Source of the DNA: Candidatus Aenigmatarchaeota archaeon
Lineage (GTDB): Archaea > Aenigmatarchaeota > Aenigmatarchaeia > QMZP01
Direction: 5' to 3'
Assembly (NCBI GenBank): GCA_016782405.1
Contig: JADHYO010000002.1
Span: forward strand, 1 to 41,093
Length of the DNA stretch: 41,093 nt
This document shows, piece after piece, positions 8,282-33,030 of this stretch. The translations under genes were made by a program, and so were the position numbers. Under the pieces are notes generated by a model. The model saw only the letters and a list, made by a program, of their open reading frames with translations. It was not told the origin of the DNA and ran no database searches. Positions within the stretch are counted from its first letter, which is position 1; each line of letters starts with the position of its first letter.

Positions 8282-8335
8282 TTTTTAAAAACTCCCTTGT
8301 TTAATATCTATCATGCCTCGGTAGCTCAGTAGGTA

Positions 8336-8363
8336 CCTCCTGCAAAAGCAGGTGAGCTTTAAA
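8336..8363 (+). other. Non-canonical D-loop tRNA intron (28 nt; boundary +/-1-2 nt)
   Basis: Removal gives D-loop AGTAGGTA; internal hairpin CCTGC-AAAA-GCAGG; relaxed helix TAGG/TTTA. Confidence 0.7.
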
Positions 8364-8379
8364 GAGCACACGGCTGTTA

Positions 8380-8393
8380 CATTTATGGCAGAC
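8380..8393 (+). other. Canonical 37/38 tRNA intron (14 nt)
   Basis: Central helix CTGT/GCAG followed by bulge AC^A. Confidence 0.85.
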
Positions 8394-8439
8394 ACCGTGT
8401 TGTCGTAGGTTCGAGCCCTACCCGAGGCGCTTATCCAAC

Positions 8440-9258
8440 CTAAGGAAAACCAAGCTCAAGTTGAATGGGGAAATGGTCTGATGGGCTTTGCTCCTTGCCG
8501 TCCTTTCTTTTGTATGTTGAATTCATCACCGAATAATTCTTAAGAAAAGGCTTCAGTCCAGGGGAAACAAAGAAATGATCTATCTGTGGGCTCTGCGCCC
8601 AGCCTAGCCAGTTGGCGTGCGTCGGCTGCTTGTTCCCAAAATGCCCAGCAGCGTCAATAAAATACTTGCTAAGTTCCTTACCACAACCAGCCACATCCAC
8701 ATTCCTCCCAGGGAGAATGTCTGTATTCATATCCCCGAACAGTATAATCCCGTCTTTGTACTGTTCAGGAAACTGTTTTTTGAGCAAACCCATCAACGCA
8801 GCACCTTCCTTTTTCTTGTGTTTCTGGTCCATTGTTGGATCAAGATGTGTGCAGATCAAAATCAATCGTTTCTCCCCAACAACAACCCTTGCCCACACAT
8901 AAGTTGACCACAAATTATTCCCCTTCATCGCAGTCCCGTTGTCCTCAATCTTTCCCCATCCCTGCTCCTCAACAGTGATCCTGGGGGAAACTGCAAGCAC
9001 ATTTATGATCCCCCAGTAAGGCTCGTGTGATTCAGGATAAGCAATAATATTGTAATCCCCACCAAAAGCCCTGGAGAACTGCCCCAAGTTATCAGCTGTA
9101 AACTCCTGTAACCCAAAAACATCTGCTTTTGCCTTTTTGATAACAGAAAAAACCTTTTCCTTGCGGTATTTCCAAGCCACAAGCGGATCTTTATAGCGTT
9201 CAATCACACCTTTATGGTCAGCCAGCACGTTATACGAAAGCAATTTCAGTGAATGCAT
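8440..9258 (-). CDS. Endonuclease/exonuclease/phosphatase (EEP) family protein, CCR4/nocturnin/Angel-like motifs
   Basis: SYNVLA, GLQE, THL, GDMN, IDHFF, PSDHFPI. Confidence 0.88.
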   Translation of the reverse strand: MHSLKLLSYNVLADHKGVIERYKDPLVAWKYRKEKVFSVIKKAKADVFGLQEFTADNLGQFSRAFGGDYNIIAYPESHEPYWGIINVLAVSPRITVEEQGWGKIEDNGTAMKGNNLWSTYVWARVVVGEKRLILICTHLDPTMDQKHKKKEGAALMGLLKKQFPEQYKDGIILFGDMNTDILPGRNVDVAGCGKELSKYFIDAAGHFGNKQPTHANWLGWAQSPQIDHFFVSPGLKPFLKNYSVMNSTYKRKDGKEQSPSDHFPIQLELGFP

Positions 9259-9393
9259 ACCAATCCCTTATCCATTTCTACGCACCAAACCCTTAAATTG
9301 CTTCCCCTAACCCCTTGCTTTTTAATATATTCAGCCAAATCAATTACATTAAACAGTGGGGCGGTAGCTCAATGGGAGAGCACCAGACTGAAG

Positions 9394-9408
9394 CCTTTTT
9401 AGGTTGAA
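9394..9408 (+). other. 37/38 tRNA intron (15 nt) with a poorly paired central helix
   Basis: Removal restores the 7-nt loop CTGAAGA; helix CTGA/GTTG is only partly complementary. Confidence 0.7.
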
Positions 9409-9424
9409 ATCTGGGTGTTGTGAG

Positions 9425-9453
9425 AAGGTGAAAGGAAACTCTCACCTCACAAA
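9425..9453 (+). other. 53/54 tRNA intron (29 nt) with a well-formed bulge-helix-bulge
   Basis: TGTG AG^A AGGTGA...TCACCT CACA AA^T: 4-bp helix TGTG/CACA, two 3-nt bulges, inner helix AGGTGA/TCACCT. Confidence 0.85.
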
Positions 9454-9459
9454 TTCGAT

Positions 9460-9490
9460 ACCTTAACGGAGAAATCCGTTATCGAGAAAC
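9460..9490 (+). other. T-loop tRNA intron (31 nt; exact register uncertain, 59/60 best fit)
   Basis: 31 extra nt in the T-loop, containing hairpin TAACGGA-GAAA-TCCGTTA. Confidence 0.7.
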
Positions 9491-10240
9491 TCTCACCCGT
9501 CCCACTTGTTTTTTAATTATTGATTCTGAGTATAGTTGAACCTTACCTTTAGCGTAAATGTCTCTACATCTTGCCACTTTTAGTAAATGTTTTGGGTTAT
9601 TAAAACCTATCAATTTCATCCATTTTTCTAAATTTCTTTTTCCGTTCAGATCTATTTTATACCCAACATGTTTTTTCCCAGTGCCATCATCAACTATATC
9701 AACATATCTACAAAATGAAAACCCCAAACAATTCAACTCAAATGCAACTTGCTGTATAATGGTTTCACTTTTCAATTTCATGGTTATGGTTGGATAATAT
9801 TTGTATTTTTTATGCCTCTTCTTGAGAGCCAAAGAACCATCGGTATCGTATAAACCCCTAACAAACGGTACTATAAATTTTTTATTTTTTAGTATTATTT
9901 CAGGAATTTTTATATCATTCTTTGGACCTATATTCATTCCCACATCTTTCAGAAAATTAAATAAACCCTTTGATTGGCACCTAACAAAGATAACATTCTG
10001 ATCATTTCTCTGAAAAAGGGTAACATTCATATTGAAGAGTACTTTAAACAATGGAATAATCTTAGACTCAAAGTGAGCTCTATCGTTTATAGAATGACCA
10101 ACAATCTCTATCAACCTTCTTCGTTTATTTTTAGGATCAGTGAAGTCATAAACAGAACCATCACCAATTAAAATCCCTAGAAATTCAGCAAATTCAGGCG
10201 TCATCTTCTTTGGTAATTTCAATTTCATCGCCTTGTTCAT
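9479..10240 (-). CDS. Free-standing two-motif LAGLIDADG (DOD/intein-type) homing endonuclease
   Basis: Motifs AEFLGILIGDG and PFVRGLYDTDG, KIPEII linker; no Cys1/HN splicing domains; visibly AT-richer than flanks. Confidence 0.88.
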   Translation of the reverse strand: MNKAMKLKLPKKMTPEFAEFLGILIGDGSVYDFTDPKNKRRRLIEIVGHSINDRAHFESKIIPLFKVLFNMNVTLFQRNDQNVIFVRCQSKGLFNFLKDVGMNIGPKNDIKIPEIILKNKKFIVPFVRGLYDTDGSLALKKRHKKYKYYPTITMKLKSETIIQQVAFELNCLGFSFCRYVDIVDDGTGKKHVGYKIDLNGKRNLEKWMKLIGFNNPKHLLKVARCRDIYAKGKVQLYSESIIKKQVGRVRVSR

Positions 10241-10282
10241 TACGCTTAAATGTGGGGTATATTTTAATTTGAATTTTCATCA

Positions 10283-10340
10283 CCTTATAGATTTCTAAAC
10301 TATATATATTATAGTGCTTTAACCTTTATAAAGATTTCTA
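10283..10340. promoter_or_regulatory. Divergent promoter region with candidate operators
   Basis: AGATTTCTA twice (10289-10297, 10332-10340), inverted repeat ACTATA-N5-TATAGT (10299-10315), TTTATAAA at 10325-10332. Confidence 0.5.
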
Positions 10341-10355
10341 TGGTATAGTATACAT

Positions 10356-10562
10356 ATGCCCAAGAAAAAGGATTTCCCCCCAGACAGATATCAAGAGGAA
10401 ATACTGAAGATTCTCAAGGAAGAGCCTTTCATGTCCACATCAGAAATCTGCCACAAACTGAATATGGGATACGAAACAGGGCTTAAATACACAAACCAAC
10501 TATTCAATATAAACAGGATAAAACTAAAGAAAGTAGGTAATAGAAGATTTTGGTATTTGTGA
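10356..10562 (+). CDS. Small winged helix-turn-helix protein
   Basis: EEILKILKEEPFMSTSEICHKLNMGYETGLKYTNQL followed by beta wing IKLKKVGNRRFWY. Confidence 0.8.
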   Translation: MPKKKDFPPDRYQEEILKILKEEPFMSTSEICHKLNMGYETGLKYTNQLFNINRIKLKKVGNRRFWYL

Positions 10563-10566
10563 TACC

Positions 10567-11145
10567 ATGCCAAAGAAAATCCCCGAAAAAGAAGCGAAGG
10601 CAAAGTATGCCAAGGAGAAACCAGCAGCCGCAAGGCTGCTCACCAACAAGGTTTTTGTCCCCAAGAACTTCGATCCTTTACTGGAAAAGAATTATGGCAA
10701 ACATTTGAGAGGTGGCCTAGAGCTCGGTCTTGTTGAAGCCCTCTATTTGCTAGAAAAAGGAAAAATAAACATTTCCAAGGAAGGAAAAAAAGTCACGTTC
10801 CAAAAGCTGTTAGAACATGCCCTGAAAAAAGACAAAAGAATCCACGAGAAGCTGGCGGTATATAGCGACCTCCGCGACCGCGGACTTGTAGTCAAGACAG
10901 GCTTCAAATTCGGTTGCGACTTCCGCGTTTACCAGCGAGGCGTCGGGGTTAAGCGCGGTCCAAAAGCCCCAGGAGAACATACAAAATGGATTGTCTACGC
11001 TGTCCCTGAAGATTACAAATGTTCCTTCCAGGAACTATCCCGTGCCGTTAGATTGGCACATTCAATCCGGGCTAGAATGTTGTGGGCACTTGTTGATAAT
11101 GAGGCTGATGTCACATTCTTCGAAGTGATGCGTCTCAAACCTTAA
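10567..11145 (+). CDS. endA: tRNA-intron endonuclease (EndA, single-unit type)
   Basis: LGLVEALYL, VYSDLRDRGLVVKTGFKFGCDFRVY, GEH, RLAHSIR, C-terminal RLKP. Confidence 0.93.
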   Translation: MPKKIPEKEAKAKYAKEKPAAARLLTNKVFVPKNFDPLLEKNYGKHLRGGLELGLVEALYLLEKGKINISKEGKKVTFQKLLEHALKKDKRIHEKLAVYSDLRDRGLVVKTGFKFGCDFRVYQRGVGVKRGPKAPGEHTKWIVYAVPEDYKCSFQELSRAVRLAHSIRARMLWALVDNEADVTFFEVMRLKP

Positions 11146-11169
11146 AAAACCTTATGAGAGGAAAACGTT

Positions 11170-11370
11170 ATGGGAAGAATAAAAAGCGTTGCTATCAAGA
11201 CACTGGGAAACGACCTAATAGCCAAACACGGCAAGCGTTTCTCAGATAATTTTGATACAAATAAGAAGGTCCTAAGGGAAGTGAAGCCAATAGAATCAAA
11301 GTATGTTCGCAACGTCCTCGCCGGTTATATTACCAGAAGGGTCCAGATATTGAAGAGAAGGGAAATCTGA
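11170..11370 (+). CDS. rps17e: 30S ribosomal protein S17e
   Basis: MGRIKS...FSDNFDTNKK...SKYVRNVLAGYITR. Confidence 0.95.
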   Translation: MGRIKSVAIKTLGNDLIAKHGKRFSDNFDTNKKVLREVKPIESKYVRNVLAGYITRRVQILKRREI

Positions 11371-25924: not shown

Positions 25925-26033
25925 CAACCAACACATCAACAATAAACAAGAACAGGAAGTACCTTTTTATATATAACCTTCATAGTATTATGAAAAAACA
26001 GAGCCCCATCATCAGTAAAAGGGTGATTAGATT

Positions 26034-26990
26034 ATGTATGATTTGAAAGGAAAAAACGTAATGGTGACTGGCGCAAGTGGTTTTACTGGTTACCATCTTT
26101 GCAATGAGTTGGTTAAGGAAGGGGCCAATATAATAGCTTTTGTTCGAGGGAGCAGCGATATAAATGGCATTAAGGATTTGAATGGGGTTAAAATAGTGTA
26201 TGGGGACATGACAGACATTTCCAGCATATACAGAGCAATAAAGTATTCCAATACTGAGTTTGTTTTCAATTGCGCTGCAGTAGTTCCTGTAATGGGAGCA
26301 AGAGACATTCCAATGAACACTGTGGCTGTTAATACTCAGGGGGTTTTCAATCTTTCTTGGATATGCAGCGAACTTGATGTTAAGAGGATTGTTCAAATTT
26401 CAACATGCCACATATATGGCAATCATCCAGAGTCAGAGCTCCCTTTGACAGAGGAAGCCACACCAACACCCGAAGACATTTATTCCTCATCAAAATTTAG
26501 CGGAGAAATTATGTTGAAACATTTCATAAACAACGGGTTAGATGCTGTAATTACAAGAGCATTCAATCTCTTTGGTGCAAAGCAACGATCTGAATTCTTT
26601 ATACCAGAAGTCATTAAGCAGGTGGCCGAAGAAAAGAAAAAAGAACTTGTTGTTGGAAACATAACAACAACAAGGGATTATACATACGCCCCAGAGATTG
26701 TCAGGGGATATATCATGGCCATGAAGATGGGTAAGGTTGGTAATATTTACCAATTCTGTTCTGGTAATGAAATTAAAATGAGTGCTTTGATCGATAAGAT
26801 AATTGAGGCACTAAACGAGGTGACAAAGCAGAATTACCAACCTGAAATAATCTCAAGAAACCCAAGGAAGAACGACATCAATAGAATGTACGGCACCTAC
26901 AAGAAAGCTAAGAACGAGTTTGGGTGGGAACCTGAAATAAGTCTGGAGGATGGTCTAAGGAAAACAATAAGTGAAACTTATGTGGGGTAA
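26034..26990 (+). CDS. NAD-dependent nucleotide-sugar dehydratase/reductase (GDP-mannose 4,6-dehydratase-like SDR)
   Basis: VTGASGFTG, YSSSK, RAFNLFG, RDYTY; GGGTGA SD upstream. Confidence 0.87.
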   Translation: MYDLKGKNVMVTGASGFTGYHLCNELVKEGANIIAFVRGSSDINGIKDLNGVKIVYGDMTDISSIYRAIKYSNTEFVFNCAAVVPVMGARDIPMNTVAVNTQGVFNLSWICSELDVKRIVQISTCHIYGNHPESELPLTEEATPTPEDIYSSSKFSGEIMLKHFINNGLDAVITRAFNLFGAKQRSEFFIPEVIKQVAEEKKKELVVGNITTTRDYTYAPEIVRGYIMAMKMGKVGNIYQFCSGNEIKMSALIDKIIEALNEVTKQNYQPEIISRNPRKNDINRMYGTYKKAKNEFGWEPEISLEDGLRKTISETYVG

Positions 26991-26992
26991 AA

Positions 26993-27994
26993 ATGAGAGA
27001 AATTGGCAGGTTTACAGCAGTTGGGATATTGTCCACTGCTATTTCTTGGGTCATATTCCTGATGTTCTCTGACATCATAGGCTTCCCGGCTGTTATAGTT
27101 GCGATGGCATACACCCCATTTAATTTTTTGTGGCGATTCTATGCTGAGAAGAAATGGGTTTTCAGGCCACCGAAAGAAGGAAATAACTCAATCATTGGTT
27201 TATTCGATACTATAAACAGTGGTATTCGAGCCTACTCAATAGAGCTACACAAAGAAATAGGTGGGGAGCGGATAGATTTCAGCCGATTATATTTTAAATA
27301 TAAAGGTGAGAAAGATTGTTTCAGGTCAAGCGACAAAAGAATTTCATTCCTAAGACCAATGGTCATACCAAAGGGGGACAAAGTATATTTCAATATTTAT
27401 GATTCCAGAATTACACTTGCTGCCCTTCCCACATTACTTATTAGCAAGTTCTTAGGGAAAAGAATAATAGGGATAGCCCACCATACCAGCAACAGGAAAG
27501 TGGTGTTTATAGAGAACACCCCCTTCAATAAAGTGTTCCCAAACTTCATTTTCGATGAATACATAACACACAAAAAAGGAGTAGTTATAAACAACAAGAA
27601 AACAACATTTCGGGATATGTCGGTGGGTTATAAAAAAATATCGTTAAGTAAAAACGCTTGCAGAAAAATGCTTAAAATCCCGGAAAATGCTAATGTTACT
27701 CTAATATTCGGTCACATACGGCCATACAAGAACATAGAGAAATTCGCTGAATGGTTTGTTAACAATGCAAAAAAAGGTGATATGCTGTTGATTGCTGGAA
27801 AGAAATGGTATGATATAAAGCTCCCGGTAAGTAATAAGATCGAAATAAGAGACACGTTCGTTCCAGACAACGAAGTGCCGATGTACTTCAATGCTGCGGA
27901 CAATGTAGCAATACCCTATGATAAGCGGGAATCTGCATTGTACTACCTGTCAAAAAAATACAAAAAAAAGGTAATTGAAGGAAATTTGCATTAG
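26993..27994 (+). CDS. GtrA-like N-terminus fused to a divergent, apparently C-terminally shortened GT4 domain
   Basis: RFTAVG...NFLW...KKWVF (GtrA-like); FGHIRPYKNIE, LLIAG, FVPDNEV..YFNAAD..IPY (GT4). Confidence 0.6.
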   Translation: MREIGRFTAVGILSTAISWVIFLMFSDIIGFPAVIVAMAYTPFNFLWRFYAEKKWVFRPPKEGNNSIIGLFDTINSGIRAYSIELHKEIGGERIDFSRLYFKYKGEKDCFRSSDKRISFLRPMVIPKGDKVYFNIYDSRITLAALPTLLISKFLGKRIIGIAHHTSNRKVVFIENTPFNKVFPNFIFDEYITHKKGVVINNKKTTFRDMSVGYKKISLSKNACRKMLKIPENANVTLIFGHIRPYKNIEKFAEWFVNNAKKGDMLLIAGKKWYDIKLPVSNKIEIRDTFVPDNEVPMYFNAADNVAIPYDKRESALYYLSKKYKKKVIEGNLH

Positions 27995-28001
27995 GCGTGT
28001 A

Positions 28002-28072
28002 TTCTGCCCCAGTTATTGTCGGTTTCCGTAGATGCGAACACCACCACGGGTTGAACGCCCTGTTTTTAAAGA
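28002..28072. repeat. Degenerate direct-repeat copy of 29151-29227 (5' part of the acyltransferase gene)
   Basis: Shares TTCTGCyCCAGTTATTGT, CCGTAGATGCGAACACCAC, TTGAAC and CCTGTTTTTAAAGA with 29151-29227. Confidence 0.9.
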
Positions 28073-28080
28073 GTTAATTC

Positions 28081-28743
28081 TCACACTTTACTCTTACCCA
28101 CTTTCAAAATATAGAAGTAATTATATGTATTTTCTTTGTACCTATACTGCCTTACTATTTTGATATTATTGTAGTTTAATACGTCCTCTAAGTTCTGCTT
28201 GGTTGTTTTTTCCAACTCCCAGAAGTGATATTTAGATTTAGGGTTGTGATTTCTTATCGGGAGTTCTACTATGAAATTCATCTTTGGTGTCAAAAATCTA
28301 TATGCCTGAGTACAGACCGGGAGGCTGACAATAATGTAGTTCGAATAGTGCCTTAACTTTTCAAAAAGTTGTGAAATATGACTAAATGGCATATGCTCTA
28401 GGACCTCGAATAAGCAAACCACATCAAACTTTTTTGAACTTTCAAAACCTCTAATATCGGAGATTATGTCTGGATTTCTGTTCTTGTCAACATCTAGTGT
28501 TGTCACTTCTATCCCCGCTGACTTCAGATAGTTGCTAAGGAAGCCTGTCCCTATTCCAACTTCGAGTACGCTTTTTGGTTTCAAATTGACTATTTCTCTT
28601 ATTTGTTTCCAGTAAGATTTGAACTTGTTTAAGTCATCATACTTCACTATATCAATAGAGTCATTTGAAATATTACTTGGCTTTGTTGTAATCCTCCCAT
28701 TATCTTCATCTACTTTCAGTTTCCAATTAAGGGTATTGGTCAT
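28081..28743 (-). CDS. Class I SAM-dependent methyltransferase
   Basis: VLEVGIGTG, TTLD, FDVVCLFEVLEH. Confidence 0.88.
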   Translation of the reverse strand: MTNTLNWKLKVDEDNGRITTKPSNISNDSIDIVKYDDLNKFKSYWKQIREIVNLKPKSVLEVGIGTGFLSNYLKSAGIEVTTLDVDKNRNPDIISDIRGFESSKKFDVVCLFEVLEHMPFSHISQLFEKLRHYSNYIIVSLPVCTQAYRFLTPKMNFIVELPIRNHNPKSKYHFWELEKTTKQNLEDVLNYNNIKIVRQYRYKENTYNYFYILKVGKSKV

Positions 28744-29240
28744 TCCTTCCCCCTGAGTGGGAGTCCAAATTCACCACAGAATGCTTTCATTCTTTTTAGT
28801 TTAAAATAATGCTCTTTATCTCGGTATTTCAGAATCTTGCAATTGTCCCCTACTATAGCCAATGGCGGTATTTCCCCATGCACGTTCACACCTAGAGCTA
28901 TTATCACACCTTCACCTATTTGAGTTCCTGGGGAGATATTTACATTCATTCCTATCCAGACATTTTCACATATTGTTACATGTTTTAAGATCAGGTTCTC
29001 ATCAAAAGGTAATAGACCCCCTTCGTAAACATGACTATTTGAGTATATTGTGACATTTCTGCTGATTTTTGTGTTGTCCACTATTAATCCACCTTTAGCA
29101 GCTATCCAAGCACCTTCAGCTATAACCACATTGTCCCCTATTTCCATGTCTTCTGCTCCAGTTATTGTTGATTTCCCGTAGATGCGAACACCACTACCAC
29201 AGGATTTGAACATCCTGTTTTTAAAGATTTTTATGGCCAT
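28740..29240 (-). CDS. Hexapeptide-repeat (left-handed beta-helix) sugar acyltransferase
   Basis: IGDNVVIAEG, ICENVWIGMNV, IGEGVII repeats. Confidence 0.85.
   Translation of the reverse strand: MAIKIFKNRMFKSCGSGVRIYGKSTITGAEDMEIGDNVVIAEGAWIAAKGGLIVDNTKISRNVTIYSNSHVYEGGLLPFDENLILKHVTICENVWIGMNVNISPGTQIGEGVIIALGVNVHGEIPPLAIVGDNCKILKYRDKEHYFKLKRMKAFCGEFGLPLRGKE
29151..29227. repeat. Coding copy of the 28002-28072 repeat
   Basis: By-eye alignment to 28002-28072. Confidence 0.9.
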
Positions 29241-29435
29241 GATTTGGTCTCCCTTTCCAATATCACTTGATTCATCAGGTCTTTAATATCTGGCTCTGAT
29301 ATCAATCCCTGGATTTTTAAAATAATTAATTTTACTCTTTAAAACAAACACATAATTTCAAGTGGGGTCTGAAAGGTTTCTAATCAGTATCATAGCAGCC
29401 TACTCATAATGACTTGGGTAAAAAATGTCTTTAGG

Positions 29436-29451
29436 GCTTAAATATTTAAGC
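29436..29451. promoter_or_regulatory. Perfect 16-bp palindrome forming back-to-back TATA-like boxes
   Basis: GCTTAAATATTTAAGC between divergent genes, ending 21 nt before the ATG at 29473. Confidence 0.5.
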
Positions 29452-29472
29452 ACCAACGCTTTTGATTAAGCC

Positions 29473-30624
29473 ATGAAAATAGCAATAAATGCACCTTTTA
29501 GTGATCCTATAAAGGGAGCGGTCGTAATAAGAATCAATAGCTGGAGGGAACATTTCGAAAGAAATGGCTGCACCGTGGATATTTTAACCCCCTACAAACA
29601 CAGGACCCATAATGACGCCCAAAAAAGAATAATAAGATATAAAAACGAAATTGATTTGATTGCAGTTATAATAAAAAACAAATATGATGTTATTATCGGA
29701 ACCTCTCCACCAATGACCCACTCCTTCGTATCGATGATTGTCTCCAAATTAACTGGGAAAATGTTTATTCTTGATGTGAGGGATATATGGACTAATTCAT
29801 TGAAACAATTAAAACAAAAGTCAACAAGAAGCATTAAATTCAACATATATTCCTTGATTGAAAAGCTATGTTACAAATTCTCAGATAAAATATTTATTGT
29901 GGAATCCTTTATGTCGGATATAATAGTAAAAAAAACTCCAATAAAAAGAGACAAGATAATACTCGTCCCACACGGATCTAATAGCGAGCTTTTAAAAAGG
30001 GTACCCAAAGAAGCAGATAAAATTAGGAAAAAACTAGGAATCCCAAGAAAAGCGCCGGTTCTTGTATATTGTGGTGGTATGGGGGATGAAGATTTGGAAA
30101 TGATGCTCAAAAACATCTCTACACCAATTCTTGAAAAGAACGATGTTCACATACTATTCATTATAGCCATCCATAAGAACATAGTCTCTGACAACTTGTT
30201 AAATGGCATTTTAGAAATTGTGAAGAGTAGAAAAATCAAGAATTTCCATTTGGTAAAAAATATTGAGTATTCCAATGTTTGTAATTATCTTTCAGTTGGT
30301 GATATAGCATTGCAACCACTCAGAGATTCACTAAAGGAGTACACTACGCAAAAAACTTATGATTATATGGCTTGCGAATTACCCATTTTTACAAGGGCTT
30401 CCCCACAGGGGAACCTGAAAAAGCTTATGGATAAATATGACATTGGTTATTTTGCATCTGATTGGGATGAATTCAATAAAAATCTGGTGATAGCGCTCCG
30501 GGAAAAGAATAAATCCAGAAAAAAAGGAATTACAGGAAGAAAGATAATAAAATCCAAATTCTCCAGGACCCTCTCCACTAAAATCGCCTTAAAAGAAGTT
30601 CAGGATCAGCTTAAATCCTTTTAA
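29473..30624 (+). CDS. GT4 glycosyltransferase
   Basis: TSPP, LDVRDIW, LVYCGG, KTYDYMACELPI. Confidence 0.82.
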   Translation: MKIAINAPFSDPIKGAVVIRINSWREHFERNGCTVDILTPYKHRTHNDAQKRIIRYKNEIDLIAVIIKNKYDVIIGTSPPMTHSFVSMIVSKLTGKMFILDVRDIWTNSLKQLKQKSTRSIKFNIYSLIEKLCYKFSDKIFIVESFMSDIIVKKTPIKRDKIILVPHGSNSELLKRVPKEADKIRKKLGIPRKAPVLVYCGGMGDEDLEMMLKNISTPILEKNDVHILFIIAIHKNIVSDNLLNGILEIVKSRKIKNFHLVKNIEYSNVCNYLSVGDIALQPLRDSLKEYTTQKTYDYMACELPIFTRASPQGNLKKLMDKYDIGYFASDWDEFNKNLVIALREKNKSRKKGITGRKIIKSKFSRTLSTKIALKEVQDQLKSF

Positions 30625-30712
30625 TATTGACGAGTATGATAAAATACTGCAAAGGGTGCGAAATATTCAGAAAAAAGCGCTGGGATAAGAGCAAGTGGTT
30701 CAAGGTTGTGAA

Positions 30713-31585
30713 ATGAACATGAAAACCAGATTGGGGGTTACAGGCAGCGGTGGATTCGTCGGATCACATCTTAAAAACAATTCCAGTAGCTTTCCTTCAG
30801 TTGAAAGTGTCGAGTGTTTTGATAGTAAAAATGCCAGCTTGTTCGATATTGAATCAATTAAACCTTTTGTTAAGGACAAGAATGTGATATTCCACATTGC
30901 CGGCGCTACCAAGGCGGAGCCCGACGAATTAATGAAAGTGAATCTCCTAGGAACAGGAAATCTCCTGGAAGCAGTGAGAAAATATTCTGAAAACAAAGTC
31001 AAAATAATATTCACGTCATCTTGTTATGTTTACGCCCCAACCAAAACCCCATCCAAAATCAATGAAAACAGCGCTCTTGCCCCCCAGAACATTTATGGTC
31101 TGACAAAAAAATTCGCAGAAGAGTTGCTTGAGAAATACCATAGAGATTATGGAATTGACTTCCTTACACTAAGGCTCACCAACACATATGGTCCACTGTG
31201 CTACCCAAACAAGCAATCCATCGTAGCAACAATAATAGATTCCACACTTAGAAGCAAACATTTTACAATTCATGGCGATGGTAGCAGAATGATAGACCTG
31301 ATATTTGTGAAGGATATTATCGAGGCATTTTCAAAATCACTATCATACAATGGGAAGAAGAAGATTTTCAACATATGTACCGGCAACCCTGTATCAATAA
31401 GCGATATTATAGCTCTAACTGAAAAAATCACCAATAGCAAGCTCAAAACACAGTGCCAAAAACAACCATCCTCTGGTTTTTTGATATCTGACCCCGACCT
31501 TGCAGCAAAAGAACTTGGTTTTTCCTCATCCACAACCCTGGAAGACGGTCTATCTCAAACAATTAAATGGCTAGAACAAATATGA
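30713..31585 (+). CDS. NAD-dependent epimerase/dehydratase
   Basis: VTGSGGFVG, SSCYVY, YGLTK, RLTNTYGP. Confidence 0.88.
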   Translation: MNMKTRLGVTGSGGFVGSHLKNNSSSFPSVESVECFDSKNASLFDIESIKPFVKDKNVIFHIAGATKAEPDELMKVNLLGTGNLLEAVRKYSENKVKIIFTSSCYVYAPTKTPSKINENSALAPQNIYGLTKKFAEELLEKYHRDYGIDFLTLRLTNTYGPLCYPNKQSIVATIIDSTLRSKHFTIHGDGSRMIDLIFVKDIIEAFSKSLSYNGKKKIFNICTGNPVSISDIIALTEKITNSKLKTQCQKQPSSGFLISDPDLAAKELGFSSSTTLEDGLSQTIKWLEQI

Positions 31586-31695
31586 TATATTAGAAACAGG
31601 GTAAACAAATTAAAGGCCCGCAATACAGTAAAGAAACCACGGTTAGGGCTGGGAATATATAATTGAACAGATGTAAACGTTTATAGTGTGGTAAC

Positions 31696-33030
31696 ATGTC
31701 ATTGCAAGGAAAATTATTCAGGCTTGCATCATACAGTGTCGTGGATATCGCGGCTTTAAAAATACTAAGCGGGGTTATTTTTATCATATTGGCGCGTCTT
31801 TTGCCGCGTGCGGATATTGGTATAATTGGCCTTGTTGCTGGGTATCTCACTTTATTTCGGTTTCTTTCCATAACCCCAGAAAGTATATTGTTTAGGGATT
31901 TCCCGAAAATAAAAAATCAGTTGAATGAATATCTTAGCGCATTTATTGTTTTTTGGGCTATCAGAACTGCTCTCATACTGGCTCTTGGTGGGGTATTTGC
32001 CTATATAATGTCATTTTATTACGGGGGCACGGTTCTTCCTTTATATCTATTCGGAGCTGTTGTCGTCTTGTGCCTTGGGTATTTCCAGAGCATAGTAAAG
32101 GAAACACATTACGTGAATTTTATGCAAAAAGCTGTTACAAAGATTAACGTAGTCTTAATGATAATTCAGCTTTCATTGGTCAGCCTTCTATTTTTTGAAC
32201 CAAACATTTTACTCTATCTAGGAATACTTCTCTTTGTGAATATTTCAAGTGTTTTTGTTTGGTATTTTATTCTCAAAAAGAATTTCAATTTTTCCTTCAT
32301 CATCACCAAAGACACTTTTAATAAAATTAAGCATAGTATAATGGATTTCTCGTTATGGCAAAATATGAGCGGGTCAATTACCTACCTTATTTATAATATC
32401 GATACTCTAATACTTGGATTTTTCGTGTCACTTGAAGTTATTGGGAACTATACCATTGCCTTGACAATTGCCAATTTCTTCTTTATAGTTCCGCAAATAA
32501 TTCAGAAGTCATTCACTGTTGGGTTTTCAAATATAGAAAATAAACTTATAATCAACAAGGCGCTTTCTGTGTTCCTCAGATACGCATTATTCTTTAGCGT
32601 TCTGCAACTAGTTTTGTTTGTATTCTTCGGCAATATACTAGTCAGCATCTTTACTGCCACGCATGTAGAAATTATTTTCTGGTATTCACTAATTATTATC
32701 GCTGGTATCAGTATTTTCAATGTTTTCAGGCCACTCAATTCACTTATTGCAGTAAAAACATCATTCAGAAAGGCGTTTTTCCTTGTTTATTTGCCATCTG
32801 GTATCGCTTCTATTATTGTTTATATAACGTTTACATCAATGTTCGGTGCTATCGGGACTGCCTGGGGAAATATAGTTGCATATTCCTTCTTCACATTGTT
32901 CCTTCTTGTATACGTTAAGAAAAACCTTGACCTATCTTTGCATATCCACACAATAACAAGCGAGGAGAAAGATGTCTTAAGGAAACTGTTTGGGCGCAAA
33001 ACCAATGATCACCCTGCAGAAAAGGATTAA
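31696..33030 (+). CDS. Oligosaccharide flippase (Wzx/AglR-like, MOP superfamily)
   Basis: About 12 TM segments; LARLL...G, NIDTLILGFF...GNY, FGAIGTAW. Confidence 0.85.
   Translation: MSLQGKLFRLASYSVVDIAALKILSGVIFIILARLLPRADIGIIGLVAGYLTLFRFLSITPESILFRDFPKIKNQLNEYLSAFIVFWAIRTALILALGGVFAYIMSFYYGGTVLPLYLFGAVVVLCLGYFQSIVKETHYVNFMQKAVTKINVVLMIIQLSLVSLLFFEPNILLYLGILLFVNISSVFVWYFILKKNFNFSFIITKDTFNKIKHSIMDFSLWQNMSGSITYLIYNIDTLILGFFVSLEVIGNYTIALTIANFFFIVPQIIQKSFTVGFSNIENKLIINKALSVFLRYALFFSVLQLVLFVFFGNILVSIFTATHVEIIFWYSLIIIAGISIFNVFRPLNSLIAVKTSFRKAFFLVYLPSGIASIIVYITFTSMFGAIGTAWGNIVAYSFFTLFLLVYVKKNLDLSLHIHTITSEEKDVLRKLFGRKTNDHPAEKD

Follow-up and report, generated by a model that had tools for sequence, protein, structure and literature searches.

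A LAGLIDADG nuclease gene abutting an intron-rich tRNA-Phe gene in an Aenigmatarchaeota-like archaeon: a probable tRNA-gene-targeted homing cassette

The stretch of DNA analysed here, referred to as the window, comprises positions 1 to 41,093 (41,093 nucleotides, nt) of contig JADHYO010000002.1 in assembly GCA_016782405.1 from a Candidatus Aenigmatarchaeota archaeon. Immediately 3' of a tRNA-Phe gene that carries three introns, and convergent with it, lies an open reading frame (ORF) for a LAGLIDADG protein. We consider it probable that this ORF encodes the nuclease of a small homing cassette targeted to tRNA genes in an Aenigmatarchaeota-like DPANN archaeon. The ORF is as follows.

9479..10240, minus strand: LAGLIDADG homing endonuclease gene, two motifs, free-standing, 253 amino acids (aa), ATG start (ORF listing, Pfam, alignment)

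The product matches Pfam LAGLIDADG_3 (PF14528; E 6.3e-7; 30 bits, cut-off 22.5) and carries LGILIGDGS as motif 1 and VRGLYDTDGS as motif 2. A sequence-only reading of this DNA had described both acidic motifs as intact, and an alignment of 16 sequences bears this out: G26-D27-G28 of motif 1 and T133-D134 of motif 2 are invariant, and the catalytic Asp of each motif is unchanged in all 16 members. The protein is full length, comparable to its homologues; the conserved core stops near residue 225, beyond which the C-terminal tails vary. Matches in the PDB, 2dch_X (E 7.6e-4) and 5ak9_A (E 0.13), are to I-DmoI-type rRNA-intron LAGLIDADG enzymes. The absence of an intein or intron host, also part of the earlier description, holds as well, since the surrounding open frame is only 265 aa and the ORF lies outside the tRNA. 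Judged from sequence, the product of 9479-10240 fits a monomeric two-motif LAGLIDADG homing endonuclease, with site-specific cleavage as its predicted activity. Genome G000, which carries this gene, holds two more LAGLIDADG matches (C11:23775-24386 and C7:3525-4136), one within a 1769-aa open frame, where it is probably an intein, and the other within a 349-aa frame.

Relatives of the nuclease lie beside tRNA genes. A match was found in 41 of 61 related genomes, with several copies per genome at different tRNAs. In a set of 19 relatives' loci, a tRNA abuts the 3' end of the ORF in 10, six of them convergent (L004, by hand, and L005, L006, L007, L008 and L014) and four in tandem (L013, L018, L020 and L021); one further locus, L016, has two such ORFs within a 23S rRNA gene. 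A scan of one genome per species, which partly overlaps the 19-locus set, confirmed 181 relatives, and 80 loci from DPANN archaea were kept. ARAGORN, with introns allowed, placed a tRNA at -130 to +120 nt of the ORF stop in 40 of these 80 loci, where the tRNA density of flanks lying beyond 500 nt (21 tRNAs per 542 kb) predicts 0.77, and in eight further loci a tRNA abuts upstream of the ORF. With a custom tRNA covariance model and manual reading, 20 of 31 loci first scored as having no tRNA were resolved as multi-intron tRNAs abutting the ORF. By ARAGORN, the custom model and manual reading together, a tRNA abuts the ORF in at least 69 of the 80 loci; three others, judged by eye, resemble tandem multi-intron tRNAs, and eight have no assigned tRNA, including two truncated by a contig end and one whose ORF is broken. 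The nuclease family abuts tRNA genes far more often than expected by chance. Several ARAGORN labels were rejected on reading the sequence, namely 'tRNA-Phe' at L014, 'Val' at L033, 'Ile(aat) with 876-nt intron' at L040 and 'Leu(cag)' at L070.

The nucleases also group by the tRNA that they adjoin. In a FastTree of the 80 nucleases, whose support values are local SH-like only and in which some long branches were flagged, the tRNA-Phe clade holds 11 rows and places the window, L023 and L024 together with 94-95% support; the initiator-Met clade holds 15 rows, and further clades correspond to Asn, Gln, Leu, Arg and His. Partner labels change 32 times along the tree, compared with a mean of 51.6 for shuffled labels, and none of 200 shuffles was as low. 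The Phe, Asn and His clades each contain both convergent and tandem members, a pattern better explained by repeated settlement beside a given tRNA species than by one inherited locus. These data bear on the simplest alternative, that an ordinary selfish gene came by chance to lie near a tRNA in a compact genome and that its overlap with the tRNA is accidental. For the adjacency this account is disfavoured, both by the 40 of 80 loci against 0.77 expected and by the correspondence between nuclease clades and tRNAs; as a whole we regard it as quite unlikely, although for the overlap itself, treated below, it is accepted.

Three observations on the wider family may be added. Nucleases of the tandem class (L013, L021 and the His and Arg clades, e.g., L043-L049 and L065) are 340-415 aa long and have an N-terminal HTH-like extension, unlike the window, where a winged-helix protein is encoded separately. 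The arrangement of nuclease and tRNA is present in two records labelled as CPR bacteria, L063 and L098 (Nomurabacteria and Dojkabacteria), a label that may reflect mis-binning or transfer. At L070 (4915-5769, in a record of Micrarchaeota) a tRNA gene contains a LAGLIDADG ORF on its own strand, and the intron ends pair in a 10-bp helix, which makes this a candidate for a tRNA intron that bears an ORF.

In the window, the nuclease gene and a small divergent gene occupy the interval between the tRNA-Phe gene and the gene for the tRNA-splicing endonuclease EndA.

9505..10566, no strand: inserted cassette (nuclease plus winged-helix gene, wHTH), ~1.06 kb, 31.3% GC; absent in same-genus genome G001
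10241..10355, no strand: divergent intergenic region; A+T-rich, TATA-like boxes precede each ATG by ~25-30 nt (read from sequence)
10356..10562, plus strand: winged-helix gene (wHTH), 68 aa; Pfam HTH_24, E 9.3e-4, under cut-off
10567..11145, plus strand: EndA, tRNA-splicing endonuclease, 192 aa, host gene; Pfam PF01974 E 5e-27, PF02778 E 6e-13

The cassette has a GC content of 31.3% (31.6% in the nuclease ORF), compared with 43.1% in the window as a whole and 45-46% in the genes on either side. In G001, a genome of the same genus, the 3' half of tRNA-Phe is followed by ~110 nt and then EndA, with no nuclease or wHTH gene between them; its T arm is intact and intron-less (GAGGG-TTCGATT-CCCTC), and the genome (85% complete) gave no match to the nuclease. 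The cassette is present beside tRNA-Phe also in L023 and L024, where wHTH homologues (71% and 63% identity, respectively) hold the equivalent divergent position; there is no other wHTH homologue among L001-L134. The TATA-like boxes of the divergent region would be putative archaeal promoters, and its CTTTATAAAG box recurs in L023. By these comparisons, the cassette is an insertion that is polymorphic for presence and absence at the tRNA-Phe/EndA junction. The presence/absence comparison proposed in the sequence-only reading was answered in part: the nuclease-free G001 allele has an intron-less T arm, but no joint that skips the cassette occurs in the metagenome contigs compared across the locus, a point that weighs against the homing reading. 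Identity between the window and G027 is 45% for ribosomal protein S17e versus 58% for the nuclease and 71% for wHTH, too weak a difference to use as a hint of transfer.

Some features of the neighbourhood stand apart from this argument. The tRNA-Phe of G001 is split across two contig ends, L104 (C25 end) and L103 (C109 end), within a ~30/31 anticodon-stem intron. The order tRNA, EndA, S17e (10567-11370 in the window) recurs in L103, L121, L132, L024, L007, L106, L107, L109, L116 and L117, so EndA habitually lies beside an intron-rich tRNA gene. Elsewhere in the window, 7 kb at positions 26000-33000 have a GC content of 34-39%, against ~45% in the rest, and may be another foreign segment.

The nearness of EndA, ~330 nt from the nuclease, is one of two observations that favour a different reading, in which the ORF encodes a domesticated LAGLIDADG protein with a role at tRNAs or introns, as a maturase-like helper of EndA or as a regulator, and is kept near tRNAs for co-expression. 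The other is the persistent linkage to tRNA genes, and LAGLIDADG maturases do exist for group I introns. Yet the family is patchy, being present in 41 of the 61 related genomes, with a tRNA-Phe-linked copy in only two of 37 family genomes (G000, itself one of the 37, and G027). It occurs in several copies per genome at different tRNAs, its GC content is deviant, and the catalytic Asp is invariant in both motifs. EndA adjoins tRNA-Phe in nuclease-free relatives as well, and the convergent orientation rules out co-transcription of the nuclease with the tRNA. We therefore hold domestication to be very unlikely and return to the homing cassette, which we next consider together with the tRNA gene at its border.

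9358..9504, plus strand: tRNA-Phe(GAA) gene with three introns (manual parse, script-checked; Rfam tRNA 24 bits at 9358-9449)
9358-9393, 9409-9424, 9454-9459 and 9491-9504, plus strand: tRNA-Phe exons (manual parse)
9358-9364 (GGGGCGG) and 9497-9503 (CCGTCCC), plus strand: acceptor stem, with discriminator base A9504 (manual parse)
9394..9408, plus strand: intron 1, 15 nt, anticodon loop, position 37/38; removal gives the loop CTGAAGA
9425..9453, plus strand: intron 2, 29 nt, position 53/54, canonical bulge-helix-bulge
9460..9490, plus strand: intron 3, 31 nt, T loop, position 59/60; contains the nuclease stop codon

The T-loop intron of the sequence-only reading is present at 59/60, but it is not alone: a second intron splits the T arm at 53/54 and a third lies in the anticodon loop. 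The start of intron 1 is supported by contigs of other organisms, which after the equivalent of 9393 run straight on with A-TCGGG. A canonical bulge-helix-bulge was not found for this intron, whose fold has a 2x2 internal loop with no staggered bulges. In the case of intron 2, the central helix pairs TGTG (9419-9422) with CACA (9448-9451) in four of four positions, with bulges AGA and AAT and an inner helix formed by 9426-9431 and 9442-9447. Across 18 introns at 53/54, 68 of 72 central pairs form in register, compared with 18-29 of 72 when shifted, and in L023 the central helix is compensated (TGCG/TGCA). This covariation over 18 introns marks the 53/54 introns, as predicted structures, as genuine bulge-helix-bulge introns. 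Intron 3 has a central helix of TTCG/AGAA with three of four pairs and a GAAA-capped hairpin (9464-9470 with 9475-9481); for 16 introns at 59/60, 57 of 64 central pairs form in register versus 23-35 of 64 when shifted, with three rows mis-parsed. Placement of intron 3 at 58/59 or 60/61 was ruled out, as 59/60 alone gives both the 7-nt loop of the relatives and three of four central pairs. Once intron 3 is removed, the T loop TTCGATT equals that of intron-less tRNA-Phe alleles in relatives, and the predicted mature T arm is GTGAG-TTCGATT-CTCAC. EndA would be expected to excise these introns.

Standard tools do not detect this gene. ARAGORN found no tRNA in the window, and with -i it still missed tRNA-Phe and made spurious giant-intron calls; Rfam at the gathering score also gave no tRNA in the window, the 24-bit match at 9358-9449 appearing with E-value thresholds. 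A second intron-bearing tRNA of 116 nt, at 8315-8430 of the window on the plus strand, scored 49.5 bits with the custom tRNA model (L001:334-449); Rfam matches it weakly at 8355-8421 and ARAGORN missed it. For the whole of G000 (625 kb, 65% complete), ARAGORN -i gives only 18 tRNAs, mostly intron-bearing, and Rfam gives 14 above cut-off; many multi-intron tRNAs of this genome probably escape detection. The tRNA-Phe gene also contains an exact 12-nt direct repeat, GAAACTCTCACC, at 9435-9446 and 9486-9497. The first copy lies within intron 2, and the second runs from the end of intron 3 through the final base of the T loop and the 3' strand of the T stem to the first acceptor base; the repeat may be a duplication scar or may reflect structural constraint.

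To assess whether the nuclease and introns in the T arm go together, 75 tRNA hits from nuclease loci were aligned with the custom model, and a T-loop region longer than 7 nt was scored as an insert. Inserts were present in 6 of 19 convergent-abutting tRNAs versus 1 of 56 others (Fisher p = 8e-4, which, like the p-values below, overstates the case because kin are not independent). On reading, the six convergent inserts are all 53/54 introns; the 56 others divide into tandem (0/29), upstream (0/8) and distant (0/18) tRNAs and a single one, with an insert, at 254 nt. For a control that was not selected by the nuclease, the initiator-tRNA anticodon arm was searched in 121 genomes of one order, which gave 71 matches in 69 genomes. 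Of these matches, 70 were read, and they comprised 67 parsable genes (66 by script, one by eye), two sequences that are not tRNAs and one gene cut by a contig end. All four initiator tRNAs with an abutting convergent nuclease carry a 53/54 intron, compared with a T-arm intron in 4 of the 61 that have no nuclease and enough flank (p = 1e-4); without the centre genome, the comparison still gives three of three (p = 8e-4). Within the initiator clade, the position of the intron (53/54 or 59/60) tracks the nuclease subclade. The enrichment of T-arm introns that the sequence-only reading looked for is thus seen in the convergent class and at initiator tRNAs, but is lacking in the tandem class.

That reading further proposed that the intron protects the resident allele and is co-converted with the nuclease gene. 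Such a mechanism would run as follows. The nuclease would cut its cognate tRNA gene, within the T arm or close to it, in alleles that lack the nuclease. Repair would copy the 3' part of the donor tRNA gene together with the cassette, a step supported by displaced 3'-end remnants in three loci. The donor's introns at 53/54 and 59/60 would split the T-arm DNA and allow the resident allele to escape cutting, and EndA, encoded next to it, would restore the tRNA at the RNA level; these last two steps are supported by association.

Several observations count against this mechanism as a general rule. The tRNA-Phe genes of G025 and G009 contain all three introns, and those of G016 and G007 contain the 59/60 intron, with no nuclease in the locus. 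The same is true of initiator tRNAs L145, L148, L157 and L196, which have a T-arm intron and no adjacent nuclease. Conversely, a nuclease abuts a fully intron-less tRNA-Phe in L052 and L055, and the T arm is intact in L024, L033 and L086, where the introns lie elsewhere. None of the 29 tandem-abutting tRNAs has a T- or D-arm insert in the custom-model alignment. By manual reading, T-arm introns are present in ~13 of 30 tRNA loci of relatives, so the background of such introns in the family is high. The proposal of protection and co-conversion therefore keeps the association between nuclease and intron and two remnant cases, L040 and L063, on its side, but is contradicted by introns that occur without a nuclease and by nucleases beside intron-less tRNA-Phe. 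We consider intron-mediated immunity with co-conversion plausible, although somewhat short of probable.

The remnants are located on the far side of the nuclease. In L040, L063 and L033, a decayed second T arm and acceptor 3' strand, in the orientation of the tRNA, lie just upstream of the ORF start, and in L039 such a tRNA 3' remnant is 700 nt away. The junctions of the remnants begin in or before the T arm. In both L040 and L063 a 53/54 intron is present in the working copy but missing from the remnant, the L063 remnant having 5 extra bases at that place. Intron-less remnants beside intron-bearing working copies are consistent with a unit, made of a tRNA 3' part and a nuclease, that displaced the resident 3' end. 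Against this, a search past the cassette for a tRNA 3'-end remnant or direct repeat, allowing up to a quarter mismatches, was negative in both the window and L023. It is a tentative proposal, held with less than even confidence and somewhat less than that in immunity, that a widespread archaeal LAGLIDADG family homes into specific tRNA genes and brings along a new 3' part of the tRNA, with a T arm interrupted by bulge-helix-bulge introns at 53/54 or 59/60. A separate case is that of L054 and L005, where the pre-tRNA has an internal T-arm-like element (GTGAC-TTCAAAT-CAC, then CGGGAC) immediately ahead of the true T arm, as though a former 3' end had been turned into intron.

The remnants can also be read in another way, with the nuclease as cargo, or as the last survivor, of integrase-type elements that insert at tRNA 3' ends, so that its adjacency to the tRNA would mark an attachment site. 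Eight nuclease-free initiator-tRNA loci have inserts of 59-126 nt, behind which the last ~18 nt of the tRNA are directly repeated. At L182, an insert of 900 nt with antisense ORFs and no LAGLIDADG match is followed by a remnant tRNA 3' half; here the intron is in the displaced remnant and the working copy has none. Since nuclease-free inserts are flanked by the same kind of repeat, the site attracts other elements too, which speaks for this alternative, as do the remnant repeats that flank the nuclease in L040, L063 and L033. (The eight loci are L140, L156, L158, L169, L170, L174, L177 and L201; some of the inserts are in tandem units, and the repeat starts in the T loop.) A precedent is described for Caldiarchaeum, in which a tRNA gene was disrupted by an integrating recombinase-encoding element, with gain of an intron and a 5' tRNA fragment left behind (Sugahara 2012, PMC3293823). 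The two systems share an insert beside a tRNA, a working copy with an additional intron, and a tRNA fragment left over at the far side; they differ in that Caldiarchaeum has a recombinase and a 5' fragment, whereas the loci studied here have a LAGLIDADG nuclease and 3' fragments.

Four observations stand against an integrase-type origin. The cassette in the window consists of the nuclease and 68-aa wHTH ORFs only, and no integrase family was found in the 14 ORFs at 3.2-15.7 kb of the window. Nuclease clades track tRNA identity across phyla and in both orientations. It is the ORF itself that abuts the tRNA in at least 69 of the 80 loci, and both the window and L023 are without a flanking repeat. 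We therefore consider this origin unlikely and retain a tRNA-gene-targeted homing cassette as the preferred explanation.

The feature that first drew attention to this locus is the overlap between the two genes. As the sequence-only reading had it, the free-standing LAGLIDADG ORF runs antisense through the tRNA-Phe 3' end and stops in the T-loop intron: its last 26 nt (9479-9504) are antisense to the tRNA, and its TAA stop (9479-9481) falls in the 3' arm of the intron 3 hairpin (TCCGTTA, 9475-9481). A 929-nt contig from an independent metagenome run is identical to the window over 9198-10126 and spans the junction, so the junction is not an artefact of the assembly of one data set. Convergent overlap with tRNA 3' ends, for which a survey had been suggested, recurs among homologues; in L024 (42% identity) the ORF and tRNA-Phe share 35 nt, and the stop lies in a variable-region intron. 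The overlapping tail itself is not conserved. The closest homologue, at 58% identity, is L004, apparently the same contig as L023; it has the same synteny of wHTH gene, nuclease and tRNA-Phe, and its TAG stop touches the discriminator base with zero overlap. Read-through into the intron is lineage-specific, a point that goes against the sequence-only interpretation. Because the stop of the closest relative only abuts the tRNA and the C-terminal tails are not conserved, the 26-nt overlap and the stop within intron 3 are best read from these alignments as incidental by-products of tight packing. Nor does the position of the stop need a special cause, since the antisense frame crosses a G+C-rich exon and then an A+T-rich intron, where stops are expected. 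These are the same points (no overlap in the closest relative, unconserved tails, stops expected in A+T-rich introns) that favour the chance account of the overlap.

The arrangement can be compared with known systems. In collaborative homing, a free-standing nuclease gene reportedly lies beside an intron that it mobilises, as for F-CphI beside the psbA group I intron of cyanophage S-PM2 and for mobE of T4 with the I-TevIII intron. The window resembles these cases in that the nuclease gene is outside the intron and adjoins an intron-bearing target gene, and in the proposal made for F-CphI and mobE that the intron interrupts the target site and is co-converted with the nuclease gene. It differs in that the introns here, 20-35 nt long, are tRNA introns of the bulge-helix-bulge type that are spliced by protein and are not ribozymes, and in its setting, an archaeal chromosome with an ORF for a putative LAGLIDADG nuclease that is convergent with and overlaps a tRNA. 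With the archaeal rRNA-intron LAGLIDADG enzymes of the I-DmoI type it shares a fold family and a link with EndA-spliced bulge-helix-bulge introns; however, the ORFs of that type are inside the intron, whereas the window ORF is outside the gene, and only the L070 ORF is inside a tRNA gene. Phage T4 SegB is reported to be a free-standing homing endonuclease gene among tRNA genes that drives preferential inheritance of the tRNA region (PMC2330249). The location at tRNA genes is the likeness; SegB is a GIY-YIG enzyme of a phage with no introns involved, whereas the family described here is divided into clades that each keep to one tRNA species. Searches of the open-access literature gave no account of LAGLIDADG genes that adjoin archaeal tRNA genes.

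For DPANN archaea, heavy disruption of tRNA genes and tRNA sets that are not fully predictable have been described (PMC5829648). How short protein-spliced archaeal tRNA introns originate, move and persist is an open question, as is their abundance in DPANN archaea. Clades of nucleases tied to single tRNAs, whose convergent members lie preferentially beside T-arm introns, would make this question testable at the bench. If the proposed homing is true, the family would supply LAGLIDADG enzymes that naturally target tRNA genes, and the failure of standard tRNA finders at these loci would be explained. Homing of this kind would also be the first mechanism acting on DNA by which short archaeal tRNA introns spread and are retained, and the 3' fragments left behind would be a route towards fragmented or split tRNA genes.

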